Of a stretch of DNA of 64,000 nucleotides, positions 2,728-63,375 are shown in pieces. Under the pieces are notes generated by a model that saw only the letters and a list, made by a program, of their open reading frames with translations, was not told the origin of the DNA and searched no databases. Location: the NCBI GenBank assembly GCA_951406725.2, contig OX597826.1:55800001-55864000 (forward strand), given 5' to 3'. A program made the translations under genes and the position numbers. Every line of letters starts with the position of its first letter. Within the stretch, counting starts at the first letter, position 1. Origin of the DNA: Octopus vulgaris. Taxonomy: Eukaryota.

Positions 2728-3300
2728 TAAGCGAGCTGGAAGAATCCTTCGCAATCCGGGCAAATATTTAGCCGCACTTCGTCCGTCCTTGCGTTCTGAG
2801 TTCAAATTCCGCCGAGGTCGACTTTGCCTTTCATCCTTTCGGAGTCGATAAAATTAAGTACCAGTTTCGCACTGGGGTCGATATAATCTACTTAATCCGT
2901 TTGTCTGTCCTTGTTTGTCCTCTCTGTGTTTAGCCATCTGTGGGTAGTAAAGAAATAGGTATTTCGTCTGCCGCTACATTCTGAGTTCAAATTTCGCCGA
3001 GGTCAACTTTGCCTTTCATCCTTTCGGGGTCGATTAAATAAGTACCAGTTACGCACTAGGGTCGATATAATCGACTTAATCTGTTTGTCTATCCTTGTTT
3101 GTCCTCTCCGTGTTTAGCCCCTTGTGGGTAGTAAAGAAATAGGTATTTCGTCTGCCGCTACATTCTGAGTTTAAATTCCGCTGAGGTCAACTTTGCCTTT
3201 CATCCTTTCGGGGTCGATGAAATAAGTACCATTTTGAACACTAAGATCGATGTGGTGGACTTATCCCATTCAGCAGAATTGCTGGCTTTGTACTAATATT
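2728..3300 (+). mobile_element. SINE family B, trimeric
   Basis: Head GCGAGCTGG..GAATC, then three Meta-like units joined at AAAGAAATAG|GTATTTCGTC. Confidence 0.9.
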
Positions 3301-11449: not shown

Positions 11450-11783
11450 ATGAAGGAAGGAACACTCCCTCGGTTACGACGACGAGGGTCCTAGCTGATA
11501 CGATCAACGGAACAGTTTGCTCGTGAAATTAACGTGCAAGTGGCTGAGCACTCCACAAACACGTGTACCCCTAAAGTAGTTCTCAGGGAGATTCAGCGCG
11601 ACACAGAGTATGACAAAGCTGACCCTTCGAAATACAGGTACAACTCATTTTTGCCAACTGAGTGGACTAGAGCGACGTGAAATAAAATGTCTTGCTCAAG
11701 GACATAACACGTCGCAGGGAATTGAATTCACGACCTTAAAATCGTGAGCCGAATGCCCTAACCACTAAGCCACGCGCCTTCAC
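11450..11783 (-). mobile_element. SINE family C (tRNA head + CORE-like domain), tail type 1
   Basis: Minus-strand head GAAGGCGCGTGGCTTAGTGGTTAGG, then GTCCTTGAGCAAGAC..CAC..CTCAG..AAAATGAG. Same tail as 16357-16750. Confidence 0.85.
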
Positions 11784-16054: not shown

Positions 16055-16356
16055 TACTTGCTAGTGATGGTGGTTGCGATATTGCTCCAAGTGTTGATGT
16101 GCATTGCCGCTGATAGTTATATGATGTGGATAATTTTGTTGTGGTTGGTGTTGTCGGTGGAGGTAGTCGGAATGTTTATTCTTGTTATCTCCTGTTATTT
16201 TGCTGGAGCAGTGGTGGTGGTGATGGTGGTGGTGGTGGTGTTGACGACGGCGGTGGCGATAGTGTTGACGGCGGTGGTGGTGGTGGTGGCGTCGGTGGTA
16301 GTGAAGGTGATGGTGATAATCTAATTTTTCTTGACACTATCGATATTGTTGTTCGT

Positions 16357-16750
16357 GAAGGTGCGAGGCTCAGTGGTTAGGGCATTTGGCTCACGATCCT
16401 AACGTCGTGAGTTCAATTCCTGGCGAGCATTGTGTCCTTGAGCAAGACACTTTATTTCAGGTTGCTCCAGACCACTCAGCTAGCAAAATGAGTTGCACCT
16501 GTATTTCAGGTACCTTGTCACATTCAGCTAGCAAAATGAGTTGCACCTGTATTTCAGGTACCTTGTCACATTCAGCTAACAAAATGAGTTGCACCTGCAT
16601 TTCAGGTACCTTGTTACATTCTTCTTGGGAACTGCGTTAAAGTTACGACTGTATGTGGAGTACTCAGCCACATACACGTTAATTTCACGAGCAGGCTGTT
16701 CCGTTGATTGAATCAACTGGAACGGTCGTCTTCGTAACCGACGGAGGACC
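16357..16750 (+). mobile_element. SINE family C with an internal 48-bp triplication (16477-16620)
   Basis: Head GAAGGTGCGAGGCTCAGTGGTTAGG; CAGCTAGCAAAATGAGTTGCACCTGTATTTCAGGTACCTTGTCACATT three times. Confidence 0.88.
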
Positions 16751-24759: not shown

Positions 24760-25039
24760 ATATGTGCGTTACGTGTCTGTGTGTGTACGTGTGTTTGAGC
24801 GTGTGCATGTATGTGTGTGTGTGTGTGTGTGCGCACGCTTGCACGCAAATGTAAATATATGTGCATATAAGTATGTATAGAAGCAATGTTTTCAAATGGC
24901 TAAGGAAATTCACCTCGCAGCAGCGCGGTGCCAGTTTCGATCCTTCTGCATGGATTCACGAGTGAATATTTTCCAGCCCTAAACATAGGGAGTGAAAATG
25001 GGGTAGAGGAAAACACCATAGAAGTCCATTTTTTGTTTG

Positions 25040-25338
25040 TTTGTTCCTTTTCGACCCATGTCTGGCTCATAGGGCGGGTTTCCCGTTTCTTTGGTGTATA
25101 GGTTCCCCACCTGGATGGGACGCCGGTCCGTTGCAGGTGAGCTGCAAGAAACAGGAGGAAAGAGTGAGAGAAAGTTGTGGCAAAAGAGTCAGCAGAATTT
25201 CGCCATTACCTTCTGCCGGAGCCGCGTGGGGCTTAGGTGTTTCGCTCATAAACACACACATCGCCTGGTCTGAGATTCGAACCCGCGATCTCTCCACCGC
25301 GAGTCCGCTGCTCTAACCACTAGGCCATGTGCCTCCAC
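25040..25338 (-). mobile_element. tRNA-derived SINE, family C variant (tail type 2)
   Basis: Paralog of 13070-13367. Confidence 0.88.
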
Positions 25339-25728
25339 ATAGAAGCCCATGAGAGGGATTGTAACTGTAATTCTTTTCTACTCTAGGCACAAGGCCCGAA
25401 GTTTTGGGGGAGGGTGCCAGTCGATTAGATCGACCCCAGTACGCAACTGGTACTTAATTTATCGACCCCGAAAGTATGAAGGGCAAAGTAGATTGTAATT
25501 GGAAATATACAGCATTGACACACCCTATATCACGCTGATTCTGTCCGAGAATTATATTACGAAGGATACACCTTTCTATGGAATATTCAGGCACTTGCAC
25601 GTTGATACACGAAGTAACTCAGTTGATCAAGCAATAACTGAGTTCTCATTGTCAAACCTAATGGCGATCCAATGAAAAGAGTTAAGTACTGTAAGTTCTG
25701 ATTAGTTTCTAGTTTGCTTTATCCCTAG

Positions 25729-29604: not shown

Positions 29605-30032
29605 TTTCTTATTTCTTTACTGCCCACAAGGGGATACATATAGAGGGGACAAACAAGAAGAGACAAACAGATTAAGTCGATTACATCGACCCCAGTGCGT
29701 AACTGGTACTTATTTAATCGACCCCGAAAGGATGAAAGGCAAAGTCGACCTCGGCGGAATTTGAACTCAGAACATAGCAGTAGACGAAATACCTATGTCT
29801 ATTTCTTTACTACCCACAAGGGGCTAAACACAGAGGAGACAAACAAGGAGAGACGGACGGATTAAGTCGATTACATCGACCCCAGTGCGTAACTGGTGCT
29901 TATTTAATCGACCCCGAAAGGATGAAAGGCAAAGTCGACCTCGGCGGAATTTGAACTCAGAACGTAACGGCAGACGAAATACGGCTACGCATTTCGCCCG
30001 GCGTGCTAACGTTTCTGCCAGCTCGCCGCCTT
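29605..30032 (-). mobile_element. SINE family B dimer, with older B fragments at 29300-29605
   Basis: Head GGCGGCGAGCTGGCAGAAACGTTAGCACGCCGGGCG and two Meta-like units. Confidence 0.92.
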
Positions 30033-41016: not shown

Positions 41017-42000
41017 AGGCGGCGAGCTGGCAGAAACGTTAGCACACCGGGCGAAATGCGTAGCCGTATTTCGACTGCCGTTACGTTCTGAGTTCGAATT
41101 CCGCCGAGGTCGACTAAGCTTTTCATCCTTTCGGGGTCGATAAATTAAGTACCAGTTGCGCACAGTTGTCGATGTAATCGACTTAATCCGTTTGTCTGTC
41201 CTTGTTTTTTCTTTCTTTGTTTAGCCCCTTGTGAATAGTAAAGAAATAGGTATTTCGTCTGTCTTTACATTCTGTGTTCAAATTTCACCGAGATCGACTT
41301 TCCCTTTCATCATTTCGGGATCGACAAATTAACTACAAGTTTCGTAGTGAGAACGTTCTAGTTGACTAGCCCCAACTCCCCAACATTTCGGGCCTTGTGC
41401 CTAAAGTAGGAAACAATATTTACATAGCACAATAAGGCGGCGTGCTGGCAGAATCGTTAGCACGTCGGGCGAAATGGGGTAGCTGTATTTCGTCTGCCGT
41501 TACGTTCTGAGTTCAAATTCCGCCGAGGTCGACTTTGCCTTTCATCCTTTCGGAGTCGGTTAAATAAGTACCAGTTACGCACTGGGATCGATATAATCGA
41601 CTTAATCAGTTTGTCTGTCCTTGTTTGTCACCTCTGTGTTTAGCCCCTTGTAAAGAAATAGGTATTTCGTTCGCCGCTGCGTTCTGAGTTCAAATTCCGC
41701 CGAGGTCGACTTTGCATTTCATCCTTTGGGGGTCGATAATTTAAGTACCAGTCACGCACTGCGGTCGATGGAATCGACTTAATCCCTTTGTCTGTCCTTG
41801 TTTGTCCTCTCTGTTTGGCCTCTTGTGAGTAGTAAAGAAAACGGTATTTCGTCTGTCTTTGCGTTCTGAGTTCGAATTCCACCGACGTCGACTTTGCTTT
41901 TCTTCCTTTCGGTGTCGATAAATTGTGTACTGGGGTCAATGTAATTGACTGGGCAACTCTCCGAAAATTTCGGGCCTTGTGTCTAGAGTAGAGAAGAAAA
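41017..42000 (+). mobile_element. Two adjacent family B multimers (dimer 41017-41415, trimer 41435-42000)
   Basis: Two heads AATAAGGCGGCG.GCTGGCAGAA and five Meta-like units. Confidence 0.9.
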
Positions 42001-48851: not shown

Positions 48852-49246
48852 ATATATTTCTTTACTACCCAGAAGGAGCTAAACAGAAGAGACAAACAAG
48901 GACAGACAAACGGATTAAGTCGATTACATCGAACCCAGTGAACTGTTACTTAATTTATCGACTCCGAAAGGATGAAAGGCAAAGTCAACCTCGGCGGAAT
49001 TTGAACTCAGAACGTAACGGCAGACGAAATACGTATTCCTTTATTACCCGCAAGGGGTTAAACATAGAGGGGACAAACAAGGACAGACATAGGTATTAAG
49101 TCGATTACATCGACCCCAGTGCGTAACTGGTTCTTAATTTATCGGCCCCGAAAGAATGAAAAGTCAACCACGGCGGAATTTGAACTCAGAACGTAACGGC
49201 AGACGAAATACGGCTACGCATTTCACCCGGCGTGCTAACGTTTCTG
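48852..49246 (-). mobile_element. SINE family B dimer
   Basis: Two Meta-like units on the minus strand. Confidence 0.88.
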
Positions 49247-56860: not shown

Positions 56861-57053
56861 CACATAGGTGGATAATTATTTTGCGGCGAGAAGTTTATTG
56901 CTAATGCTTTTGCAGTATTGATGCTATCTGAACGAGTTTACATCCATTCATCCATCCATCTATCTATATACATACATACATACATACATACATACATACA
57001 TACATACATACATACATACATACATACATACATACATACATACATACATACAT

Positions 57054-58309
57054 CAGAGCCATTGATCTGAAAACCAGAAAAATACTAACAAGCACACACA
57101 ATCTCCATATGAACAGTGACGTAAATCGCCTCTACTTAAAACGAAAACAAGGCGGCAGAGGCTTAACATCGATCAAAAATGCCTTTGAATGTCGCATCAT
57201 ATCCCTTCGGCAACATCTTTTAAACACCAAGTGTCGAAGTGCATCCCTTGACCAAGTTTACATACATGAGGCTGATAACATCATAAGACTAGGAAGGCAG
57301 CTCCTTGAGCAACACTCTTTGTCTGATAACCTAGAACACATGCCCAAAGAAGTCGCACGACTCTACCGCAATGTGTCATCAGACGAAAAGATGATCCAAA
57401 ATGAGCAGAATCCTATACATGGGTATGTTAGTAGAAAGCTCTATGATGATAGTAACATCGATCATCAAAACAGTTTATCACGGACCAATAGCCGGATTAC
57501 TACCTCCCACTTTGAAGGGTATTCGTTTGCATTCCAGGAGCAGGAAATATCAACCAAGTGCTTGATGCACAAAAGGGATATAGATGCAGGAAAAGCCGTG
57601 AAATGTGACGACCGATGCAGACTTTGTGGAGTTCACACTAAAGATATCACACACATCATAAGCAGTTGTCCGAAAATGTTATCACTGAGGAAACATGACG
57701 TCGCTAGGGTACTCTATAATGACATCCGTCGGAAGGATAATCCCGTGGACAACGAAATAAGAACCCACAATATGGTAGAAGCCATAGCTACTCATAATAA
57801 AAAGGAATACTGGTGAAATGTACCAGTGAAGACCTCAATAAAATATAAGCACAACAGACCTGATATAATGATTTGGGATGGAGAGGGGAAGCCGTCAACG
57901 TTTGGAGAAATTACCTGCCCAGCAAATGTTAATATAAAGCTGAAAAAGAGAAAGCCTGTGTTGAACTATTGAGAAATCTGCAATTACTCTAACCAGATTA
58001 CAAGTTCGGGTTTATACATGTAATTATTGGGGCCCTGGGATATAAAACACACTGCCTAAATACCAATCTTCAGAAATTAGGCTTCTCGAAACCAGAAAGG
58101 AGAAAGCTAATCCGAAGAGTATAGATCCAATCCATCACTGGAACTGTAAAAATCTGGAAAACTTTCCAGAAGTTTATCATTTAAATATGTATAAACATGA
58201 CAAGATATGCAACTATAGGCATGAGAATACATATATAAAGCAAAACATACAAATCTGCACATACATACATACATACATACATACATACATACATACATAC
58301 ATACATACA

Positions 58310-60984: not shown

Positions 60985-61480
60985 GTAAGTAGATACGATC
61001 CGCTAAACTCCTCTTGTATCTATAGTCTGCAAACTGCAACAATACACAAATAATGTTGACACGATCAAACGACTTAATGAATGAATCACTATATGCGTTA
61101 TAATGAACTTTTACATAACTTTCAGTTAAGGTGGGCGTGAAATGCCGATGGTTATTGACATTTTTTTCCAGCCACGCCTAGTCATCTCCTCCTCATCCTT
61201 CCTTTCTAACAATGTAATAAAGCGCAAACATATTAATCAATGAATATACTGGGGCCACATCTATTTTCTTTAGACCCAACAAGTAAAAACAGGAATATTT
61301 TACAATCGGAAATAACGCTTCCGGTTGTTGGGAAATTTATATTCATAGTTGTTCTTGTTGCTGTGGTGGTATCGGTGTCACTAACAGTCTAGTTATAGGG
61401 GTTTTTTTTTTCATTTAATTTCTTGGTGTTGTTATTCTTGTTGTTTTTGATAATCCAGTTCTTATTTTTATTGACGTTGA

Positions 61481-62015
61481 AAGGCAGGAAGCTGGCAGAA
61501 TCGTTTAGCACGCTAGGCAAAGTGCTTAGCGGCATTTCATCCGTCTGTATGCTCTGACTCCAAATTCCGCTGAGGCCGCCTTTGCTTTTCATCCTTTCAG
61601 GATCGATCTTTAAAAAAAGGGCAGCGAACTAGCATAACTGTCAGCACGCAAAGGAAAAATACTTAGCGGTAGTTCGTCCGTCCTTACATTCTAAGTTAAA
61701 ATTCCACCGAGGACGACTTTGCCTTTCATCCTTTCGGGGTCGATTAAATAAGTACCAGTTACGTACTGGGATCGATATAACCGACTTAATCCATTTGTCT
61801 GTCCTTGTTTGTCCTCTCTGTGTTTAGCCCCTTGTGGGTAGTAAAGAAATAGGTATTTCGTCCGTCCTTACGCTCTAAGTTCAAATTCCACCGAGGTCGA
61901 CTTTGTCCTTCATCCTTTCAGGAACGATGAAATAAGTATTAGCTACGTACTGGGGTAGGTGTAATCGACTAGCCACTTCCCCCGAAGTTTCAGGCCTTGC
62001 GCCTATAATAGAAAG
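61481..62015 (+). mobile_element. Family B cluster (truncated monomer plus dimer)
   Basis: Heads near 61481 and 61619; Meta-like units. Confidence 0.85.
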
Positions 62016-62056
62016 ACTTCTTGTTGACATTCTTAATGTTGCTGGTATTCATTATG

Positions 62057-62105
62057 GGCCCCTACGCAAGGATGACACGCAAATTCGTGAAGCGTTCCAT
62101 ATTTT
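62057..62105 (+). pseudogene. RNU6: U6 snRNA 3'-half retrocopy (equivalent to nt 58-106)
   Basis: GGCCCCTACGCAAGGATGACACGCAAATTCGTGAAGCGTTCCATATTTT matches the conserved metazoan U6 3' half at 48 of 49 positions (reference recalled from memory). No 5' half and no ACAGAGA box. Confidence 0.95.
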
Positions 62106-62109
62106 CTAT

Positions 62110-62448
62110 GAAGGCGCATGGCCCAGTGGTTAGAGCGTCGATCTTATGACCATGAGATTGCGAGTTCGAATCCCGGACCGGGCTGCGAGTTGTGTTCTTG
62201 AGCAAGACTCTTTATTTCACGTTGCTCCAGTTGACTCAGCTGTAGAAATGAGTTGCGACGTGTTACTGGTGCCAAGCTGTATCTGTCTTTGCCTTTCCCT
62301 TGGATAACATCGGTGGCGAGGAGAGGCCGGTATGCATGAGCGATTGCTGGTCTTCCATAAACAACCTTTCCCGGACTTGTGCCTAGGAGGGTGTCTTTCT
62401 AAGTGCAATCCCATGGTCATTCGTGACCGAAGGGGGTCACCGACTTCG
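62110..62448 (+). mobile_element. SINE family C (tail type 4) fused downstream of the U6 fragment
   Basis: Head GAAGGCGCATGGCCCAGTGGTTAGAGC..GAGTTCGAATCC; CORE-like TTCTTGAGCAAGACTCTT..CTCAGCTGTAGAAATGAG. Confidence 0.9.
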
Positions 62449-62996
62449 ATTCATTATGTTGCTGTTGTTGTTGTTGCTGCTGCTATGTTAATGTTGTCCC
62501 AATCTGTCTAAATCGAGTAAACCTATAATGAAACTTTTTTCCAGATATGACCTTCACGTATGTCTTTTTTTTTTATCCTAAACACATTATTTATTATTCA
62601 ATCTAAAGGCGATAAACAGGACATCATTAGAAACAGATTTAGCTTCAACTTCTTGCAGCTGAAACAACCACGTCGAACTATCGTCCTTGGTTCACTTCTA
62701 CCATTTTACTGTTGTACTTTAATCTGAAGTCACCTCTGCTTGAGCAGCCCTATAATCATAGAAAACCTGGTCATGCACATTGCGACGGAGCCACCAACTA
62801 CCTTATCGATTAATTCTTAAATTTGTCGGTGTGATTTGGGGTACTTGATCAGGATGGTCACGAATTGGATGTATAAAAACCTTCGTCATTGGTTCATCTC
62901 CAGGTATTTGCAGTCGTTACCCATATTTCTATCGTTGTGACTTCAACTGCGGGTCAGCCCCAATCAAGTAGATCTTTGTATATAAAAATAACGAAT

Positions 62997-63375
62997 AGGC
63001 GCAAGCATGGCTGTGTGGTTAAGAAGCTTCCTTTGCAGCCATAAGCTTCTGGGTTCAGTCCCACTCTGCGGAAACTTGAGCAAGTGTCTTCTACTATAGC
63101 CCTGGGCTGACCAATGCCTTGTAAGTGAATTCAGTAGACAGAAAACGTGCGGAAGCCCGTCGTATGTGTATGGAAGTGACGTGTGTATATGTGTTTGCGT
63201 CGCTTGACAACCGGTGTTGGTTTGCTTACGTTCCTGTAACTTAGCGGTTCAGCAAATGCTTATGGAAGAAAAAGTAGCAAGCTTTAAAATAATTTCTAAG
63301 ATTAGACTCTTCAAGGCGTTGCCTCAGCATGGCCTCAGTCCAATGAATGAAACTGGTAAAATATAAAAGATAAAG
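62997..63375 (+). mobile_element. SINE family A, diverged, short internal tract
   Basis: GGCGCAAGCATGGCTGTGTGGTTAAG head. Confidence 0.82.

Follow-up and report, generated by a model that had tools for sequence, protein, structure and literature searches.

The DNA analysed here, called the window throughout, is a 64-kb stretch of the Octopus vulgaris genome with a GC content of 35.7% and many simple repeats. Towards its right end, on the forward strand, a fragment of U6 snRNA, a short spacer and a tRNA-headed SINE follow each other directly, and a 10-bp direct repeat encloses them. The U6 fragment (62057..62105, +, 49 nt) is the 3' half of the snRNA, truncated on its 5' side, and corresponds to Rfam positions 56-104. 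The Rfam U6 model (RF00026) matched 62056-62106 with an E value of 6.3e-08 and 39.4 bits (the alignment shown covers model positions 56-105). This score is lower than the 44-bit gathering score because only half a gene is present, and an Rfam search of the window at the gathering score returned nothing. Within positions 56-104 there is a single mismatch at a conserved position (62064). The piece contains the internal stem-loop of U6 and reaches the natural 3' oligo-U end of the RNA, a four-T tract whose last T is at 62105. In U6 itself, the bases immediately ahead of the break may be similar to the last bases of the duplication; this would be ordinary junction microhomology. No other U6 match with E below 0.3 was found in the window; separately, an Rfam match to eiav_FSE (E 0.37) was rejected as chance.

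The SINE lies directly downstream of U6 on the same strand. As its head aligned with seven other full heads in the window, its first base could be set at 62109, 3 nt past U6, which makes the spacer 3 nt long (62106..62108, +). This start is supported by the copy at 25337, whose own duplication stops directly before the base equivalent to 62109. That copy (25017-25350, minus strand) carries a clean 13-bp duplication with one mismatch, ending right before its first base. An earlier description, made from the letters of the window and here called the sequence-only reading, had placed the 3' half of U6, a linker and a full-length SINE within one bracket; this layout is the one we found, but the linker, which it gave as at most 4 nt (CTAT), is 3 nt. 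The spacer bases are likely to be untemplated additions, or else a short piece of flank that was carried by the SINE RNA.

The enclosing repeat, ATTCATTATG, is present at 62047..62056 (+), where it adjoins U6, and at 62449..62458 (+), immediately after the SINE tail, and has no third site on either strand of the 64-kb window. The two copies are identical (10/10, the best bracket at the outer boundary) and the match can be extended by 0 bases on either side. To gauge chance, we counted exact 10-mer brackets, letting the left copy end at any of seven positions and the right copy lie anywhere in a 30-nt window. Such a bracket was obtained at 229 of 54,961 non-simple window positions (0.42%), or at 729 of 63,300 when all window positions were used (1.15%), and the observed bracket is tighter on both sides than the test permitted. 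Because the flanks of the insert are a degenerate low-complexity TTG/CTG/ATG tract, such a bracket is somewhat more probable here than 0.42%. The exact 10-bp duplication that the sequence-only reading had claimed around U6 and the SINE together was thus borne out. Its further argument, that removal of the insert restores a continuous tract, adds little, the flanks being of low complexity.

The neighbourhood of the insert holds other repeats. Just left of it, at about 61480-61990, approximately three more diverged units (identified by eye) of a ~180-bp repeat can be recognized; this repeat forms short head-to-tail arrays at 2794-3231, 29610-29982, 41485-41922 and 48855-49212. A decayed SINE-like head (62998-63090, +, E 0.19) lies ~550 bp to the right.

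Anatomy of the SINE and its relatives in the window

The SINE spans 340 nt (62109..62448, +) and is probably complete, as its head is in line with the seven other full heads and its tail end is in register with those of the copies at 16356 and 11782. A profile of the head identified eight full heads in the window, and five weaker matches (E of at least 0.047) were set aside. The eight SINEs, with first bases at 11782, 13367, 15146, 16356, 23620, 25337, 25919 and 62109, have one tRNA-like head in common. In all eight, a Pol III A box is found at position 11 or 12 and a B box at position 56 or 57, each with at most one mismatch. In the SINE next to U6 the A box is a motif match at 62119..62129 (+) and the B box is the exact GTTCGAATC at 62164..62172 (+). 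With both boxes spaced as in a tRNA in each of the repeated heads (8/8), these elements are tRNA-derived SINEs; ARAGORN called no tRNA gene in the window.

Downstream of the head lies a central domain (62185..62256, +) which is common to four other SINE copies in the window (nhmmer E values of 1e-11 to 8e-10 against the copies at 16429, 25997, 15069 and 11711). We call it CORE-like by resemblance only: the CORE-SINE superfamily is marked by a central domain of about 65 bp, and five of the seven letters of the CORE motif CCTTGGG (PMC5786205) match at 62196-62202, a comparison limited to this motif. A pattern made from the central domain gave hits at 3 + 8 loci, all 11 of which matched only 21-28 bases, the eight named ones being bacterial, and these were rejected as chance. 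When viral, metagenome and prokaryote contigs were searched with a pattern of the SINE tail, 0 matches were obtained.

The 3' tail (62365..62448, +), presumably the end recognized by a LINE, was placed by local alignment. The score against the tail of the copy at 16356 was matched by 1 of 2000 random window pieces and by 7 of 1000 shuffles, and the score against the tail of the copy at 11782 by 8 of 2000 pieces and 19 of 1000 shuffles; the tails of the five remaining copies gave no alignment above chance with 62365..62448. As the middle and tail of the SINE have no close second copy within the 64-kb window, its 3' end rests on these related families. The eight SINEs of the window draw on two central domains and three or more tails, which makes them modular families with swapped parts, and the copy at 16356 contains a 48-bp unit in triplicate (16476-16621, 96% matches). 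Neither the tail nor the head of the SINE next to U6 folded significantly better than shuffled sequences (z -1.0 and -0.8, respectively), and the CpG ratio (0.88 versus 0.93) was uninformative for age.

No LINE sharing the SINE tail was found in the window. A retroelement ORF remnant is present at 56932-57816 (+); it begins in an ATAC repeat and is followed by more ACAT arrays. In the protein comparison (57061-57813), its best match is Octopus bimaculoides LOC106878562 (71% identity), so that this one mobile-element protein points to an octopus as the host, and the other six of its seven matches have 33-45% identity; a reverse transcriptase domain is present in two of the seven, and the remnant itself has a weak zf-RVT match (E 0.02). 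By resemblance, it may be Dong/R4-like.

Origin of the U6-SINE junction

We then considered whether the U6 fragment and the SINE arrived together. The duplication encloses both parts (10/10). For the SINE without U6, no exact bracket exceeds 4 bp, and with one mismatch allowed the best is 6 bp. Since a 10-bp outer bracket is rare by chance and the SINE alone is bracketed by 4 bp at best, U6, spacer and SINE were probably inserted in one event, as judged from this one sequence. Among the seven other SINE copies, for which the tail windows were set by eye, four have brackets of 9-15 bp with 0-2 mismatches, one lies in a TA repeat and two have none. The last base of the outer duplication is G, as is the base preceding six of the seven other SINE heads, while the base before 62109 is not G; this is a weak sign that the SINE machinery chose the outer site.

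We infer that the chimera was made by a template jump of a LINE reverse transcriptase during one target-primed event, a reading to which we assign a probability of about 55%. In LINE-SINE pairs, target-primed reverse transcription begins at the SINE tail. The reverse transcriptase of the partner LINE would have copied the SINE RNA through to its 5' end, added a few untemplated bases there, and switched to a U6 RNA at its oligo-U end. About 49 nt of U6 would then have been copied, after which the cDNA would have been attached to the target, with 10 bp being duplicated. This course of events fits best because the SINE is whole and a short spacer is present at the junction. For the non-LTR reverse transcriptase of R2, template jumping has been reported to require untemplated addition (PMC8857657), a result that was obtained in vitro and with another LINE clade. 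Of the human U6/L1 chimeras, 98.3% have U6 in the sense orientation with its natural 3' end at the junction (PMC11838501), and the octopus locus is alike in both respects, U6 having the orientation of the SINE. The internal stem-loop of human U6 lies between about nt 54 and 82 (PMC11734702). If Rfam positions are treated as about the same as those of human U6, a reverse transcriptase coming from the 3' end meets the loop near nt 80, and the copy continues to ~nt 56. The proposal of the sequence-only reading that the enzyme stalled at this stem-loop therefore fails: as the copy extends to about nt 56, the stem-loop would have been read through.

A full-length Pol III transcript of a SINE carries a 5' triphosphate, and this bears on a second route, in which the RNAs were joined before they were copied. 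RtcB would first have joined the 2',3'-cyclic phosphate of U6 to a SINE-containing RNA with a 5'-OH, possibly a host transcript that had been cleaved 3 nt before the SINE, and a LINE would then have copied the joint RNA and truncated it on the 5' side. In humans, the direct biochemical support is for RNA ligation and not for template switching, and RtcB ligates U6 to L1 as well as to further RNAs, both in vitro and in extracts, with U6 then ending in 4-5 T (PMC6789731), as compared with four T here; in addition, three bases of donor flank would account for the spacer. However, RtcB is poor on a 5' triphosphate, so that ligation to a full-length Pol III SINE RNA would be strongly lowered, and it joins U6 precisely, with no extra bases (PMC6789731). 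Moreover, it would be a coincidence if the cut had fallen no more than 3 nt from the first base of the SINE, and human U6/L1 chimeras typically combine a full-length U6 with a truncated partner (PMC11838501), which is the opposite of the octopus locus. Because the SINE is full length, ligation by RtcB fits less well than a template jump, and we regard it as rather unlikely. A whole SINE, a spacer and a halved U6 form a layout that separates template jumping by reverse transcriptase from RtcB ligation; therefore, a genome-wide set of octopus junctions could test both.

We also weighed two independent insertions, in which the SINE would have made the 10-bp duplication and the U6 fragment would have been added by an event of its own next to the head of the SINE, inside the left repeat, or the order would have been the reverse. 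The three spacer bases are in favour of this reading, as is the 4-bp match around the SINE alone, and low-complexity tracts do attract these SINEs (the copies at 16356, 11782, 15146 and 23620 are in or beside simple repeats). Yet the second insertion must then have landed at most 3 bp from the edge of the first one, in the same orientation and with a duplication of at most 4 bp, and the U6 piece lacks its own poly(A) or LINE tail at which priming could occur. Against a single event, Doucet et al. (PMC4476161) read an extra base at a U6atac/Alu junction, together with a missing duplication, as a sign of two events; at the octopus locus there are three extra bases, although the duplication is present. 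Two insertions appear unlikely to us.

An allele with an empty site would bear on the same question, and we searched sequencing runs with the region 61960-63010. Part of it was present in 20 of the 24 runs listed, among which there was no RNA run. Eight of the 20 runs, from five studies and with four organism labels, contained 0.50-0.63 of the 108 sampled words, and none was near 1. The words of the flanks alone make up 0.587 of the region (599/1021). The range of 0.50-0.63 would fit an empty allele, but no better than a uniform divergence of 1.5-2.2% or the loss of repeat words in assembly, and it was given no weight as evidence.

Spread of the junction and comparison with known chimeras

The sequence-only reading had further raised the possibility of a U6-headed SINE subfamily. 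The promoter of a U6 gene lies upstream of it, and a copy of the chimera would lack this promoter, so that only a source gene could make a U6-SINE RNA. The A and B boxes of the SINE would start transcription at about 62109 and leave U6 out. The junction was found at none of the seven other full SINE heads (0/7), the 64-kb window being a very small sample of the genome. Because transcription from the SINE promoter would start downstream of the U6 piece and none of the seven other heads in the window carries U6, such a subfamily is unlikely, and the idea found no support here. Most likely, the octopus chimera is a dead-end, non-functional retrocopy which, if transcribed, gives ordinary SINE RNA without U6. 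Human U6/L1 chimeras are each unique and do not propagate (PMC11838501), and U6 promoters are described as external and upstream of the gene (PMC4494074).

A four-T tract can be a leaky Pol III terminator, and the SINE contains no internal four-T run. These points would suit a source gene with a complete U6, a four-T terminator and, after three more bases, the SINE. RNA made by Pol III read-through of this gene would be retrotransposed repeatedly, and the octopus copy would be a 5'-truncated member of a small U6-headed subfamily. The full-length SINE, the short spacer and the four-T tract would be explained in one step; moreover, an O. vulgaris annotation has one 'U' and one 'U-L1' SINE family, with the sequences not given (PMC13282606), and U1- and U2-headed SINE families exist in crocodilians (PMC4494074). 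Nevertheless, we consider read-through very unlikely, as it requires a rare source arrangement, no second junction is present in the window (0/7 other heads) and the human U6 chimeras are unique and non-propagating (PMC11838501). The O. vulgaris repeat library (PMC13282606) may already hold such junctions. If read-through were true, a cephalopod would have its own equivalent of SINEU, built on U6 and driven by an external promoter, and SINEs could acquire new heads in this way.

By itself, a single locus matters little, and only recurrence of the junction would give it more weight. The locus suggests that the capture of U6 during retrotransposition, which has so far been surveyed in vertebrates, also occurs with the LINE-SINE pairs of cephalopods. 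Among the titles and abstracts listed by our searches, none dealt with a mollusc U6-SINE chimera or with a SINE family headed by U6, but the searches covered few subscription papers and do not prove absence; the accessible part of PMC9115989 does not mention snRNA. The pairing of U6 with a SINE is already known in vertebrates, so that only the host lineage, octopus, may be new. The sequence-only reading had proposed that the vertebrate process operates in a mollusc with a SINE as partner; a single chimeric insertion by a similar process agrees with our results, but a SINE partner is not novel.

Finally, we compared the octopus locus with known systems. The survey of Doucet et al. (2015, PMC4476161) was restricted to vertebrates. 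In platypus, they described U6 joined to L2 or to the SINE Mon-1, with U6 truncated on its 5' side in almost all U6-L2 chimeras; in Anolis, U6 was found with L1, L2, RTEX-2 and AnolisSINE2 (six U6-AnolisSINE2 chimeras), and in opossum, 5'-truncated U6 was found with RTE_Mdo and RTESINE1, both without clear duplications. The octopus locus resembles this class in that the 3' end of U6 is joined head-to-tail with a retroelement within one duplication, and in the class a tRNA-type SINE is a possible partner. As in the platypus U6-L2 and both opossum cases, U6 is truncated on its 5' side. It differs from platypus in that its partner is full length, while the platypus L2 partners are short, and in its duplication of 10 bp, compared to 1-9 bp in 72.5% of 40 platypus chimeras (PMC4476161). 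With human U6/L1 and U6/Alu chimeras (PMC6789731, PMC11838501, PMC4476161) it shares the sense orientation, the oligo-U junction and one duplication. The human chimeras usually have a full-length U6, a truncated L1, a poly(A) and a precise join (PMC6789731, PMC11838501, PMC4476161), whereas the octopus locus has a halved U6, a whole SINE, a 3-nt spacer and no poly(A).

The SINEU elements of crocodilians (Kojima 2015, PMC4494074), for which template switching was proposed as the way in which the snRNA heads were added, are similar to the octopus locus in having an snRNA piece at the 5' end of a retroposed unit. However, SINEU elements, which carry U1 or U2, are multi-copy families with common junctions and master copies (PMC4494074), while at the octopus locus one copy was seen, with a U6 piece and a tRNA head that has its own promoter downstream; judged from this 64-kb window, it does not appear to be a SINEU-type family. 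In its SINE part, the locus is like the CORE and Ceph SINEs of molluscs, including Octopus OR2 (PMC4758252, PMC5786205): the head is tRNA-like with A and B boxes, the central domain is common across families and the tails are swapped (PMC4758252, PMC5786205), and CORE SINEs have been reported from Octopus (PMC4758252). Judged by three features at the level of sequence, the octopus locus is most likely a single member of the class of chimeric retrocopies formed by U6 and a retroelement.
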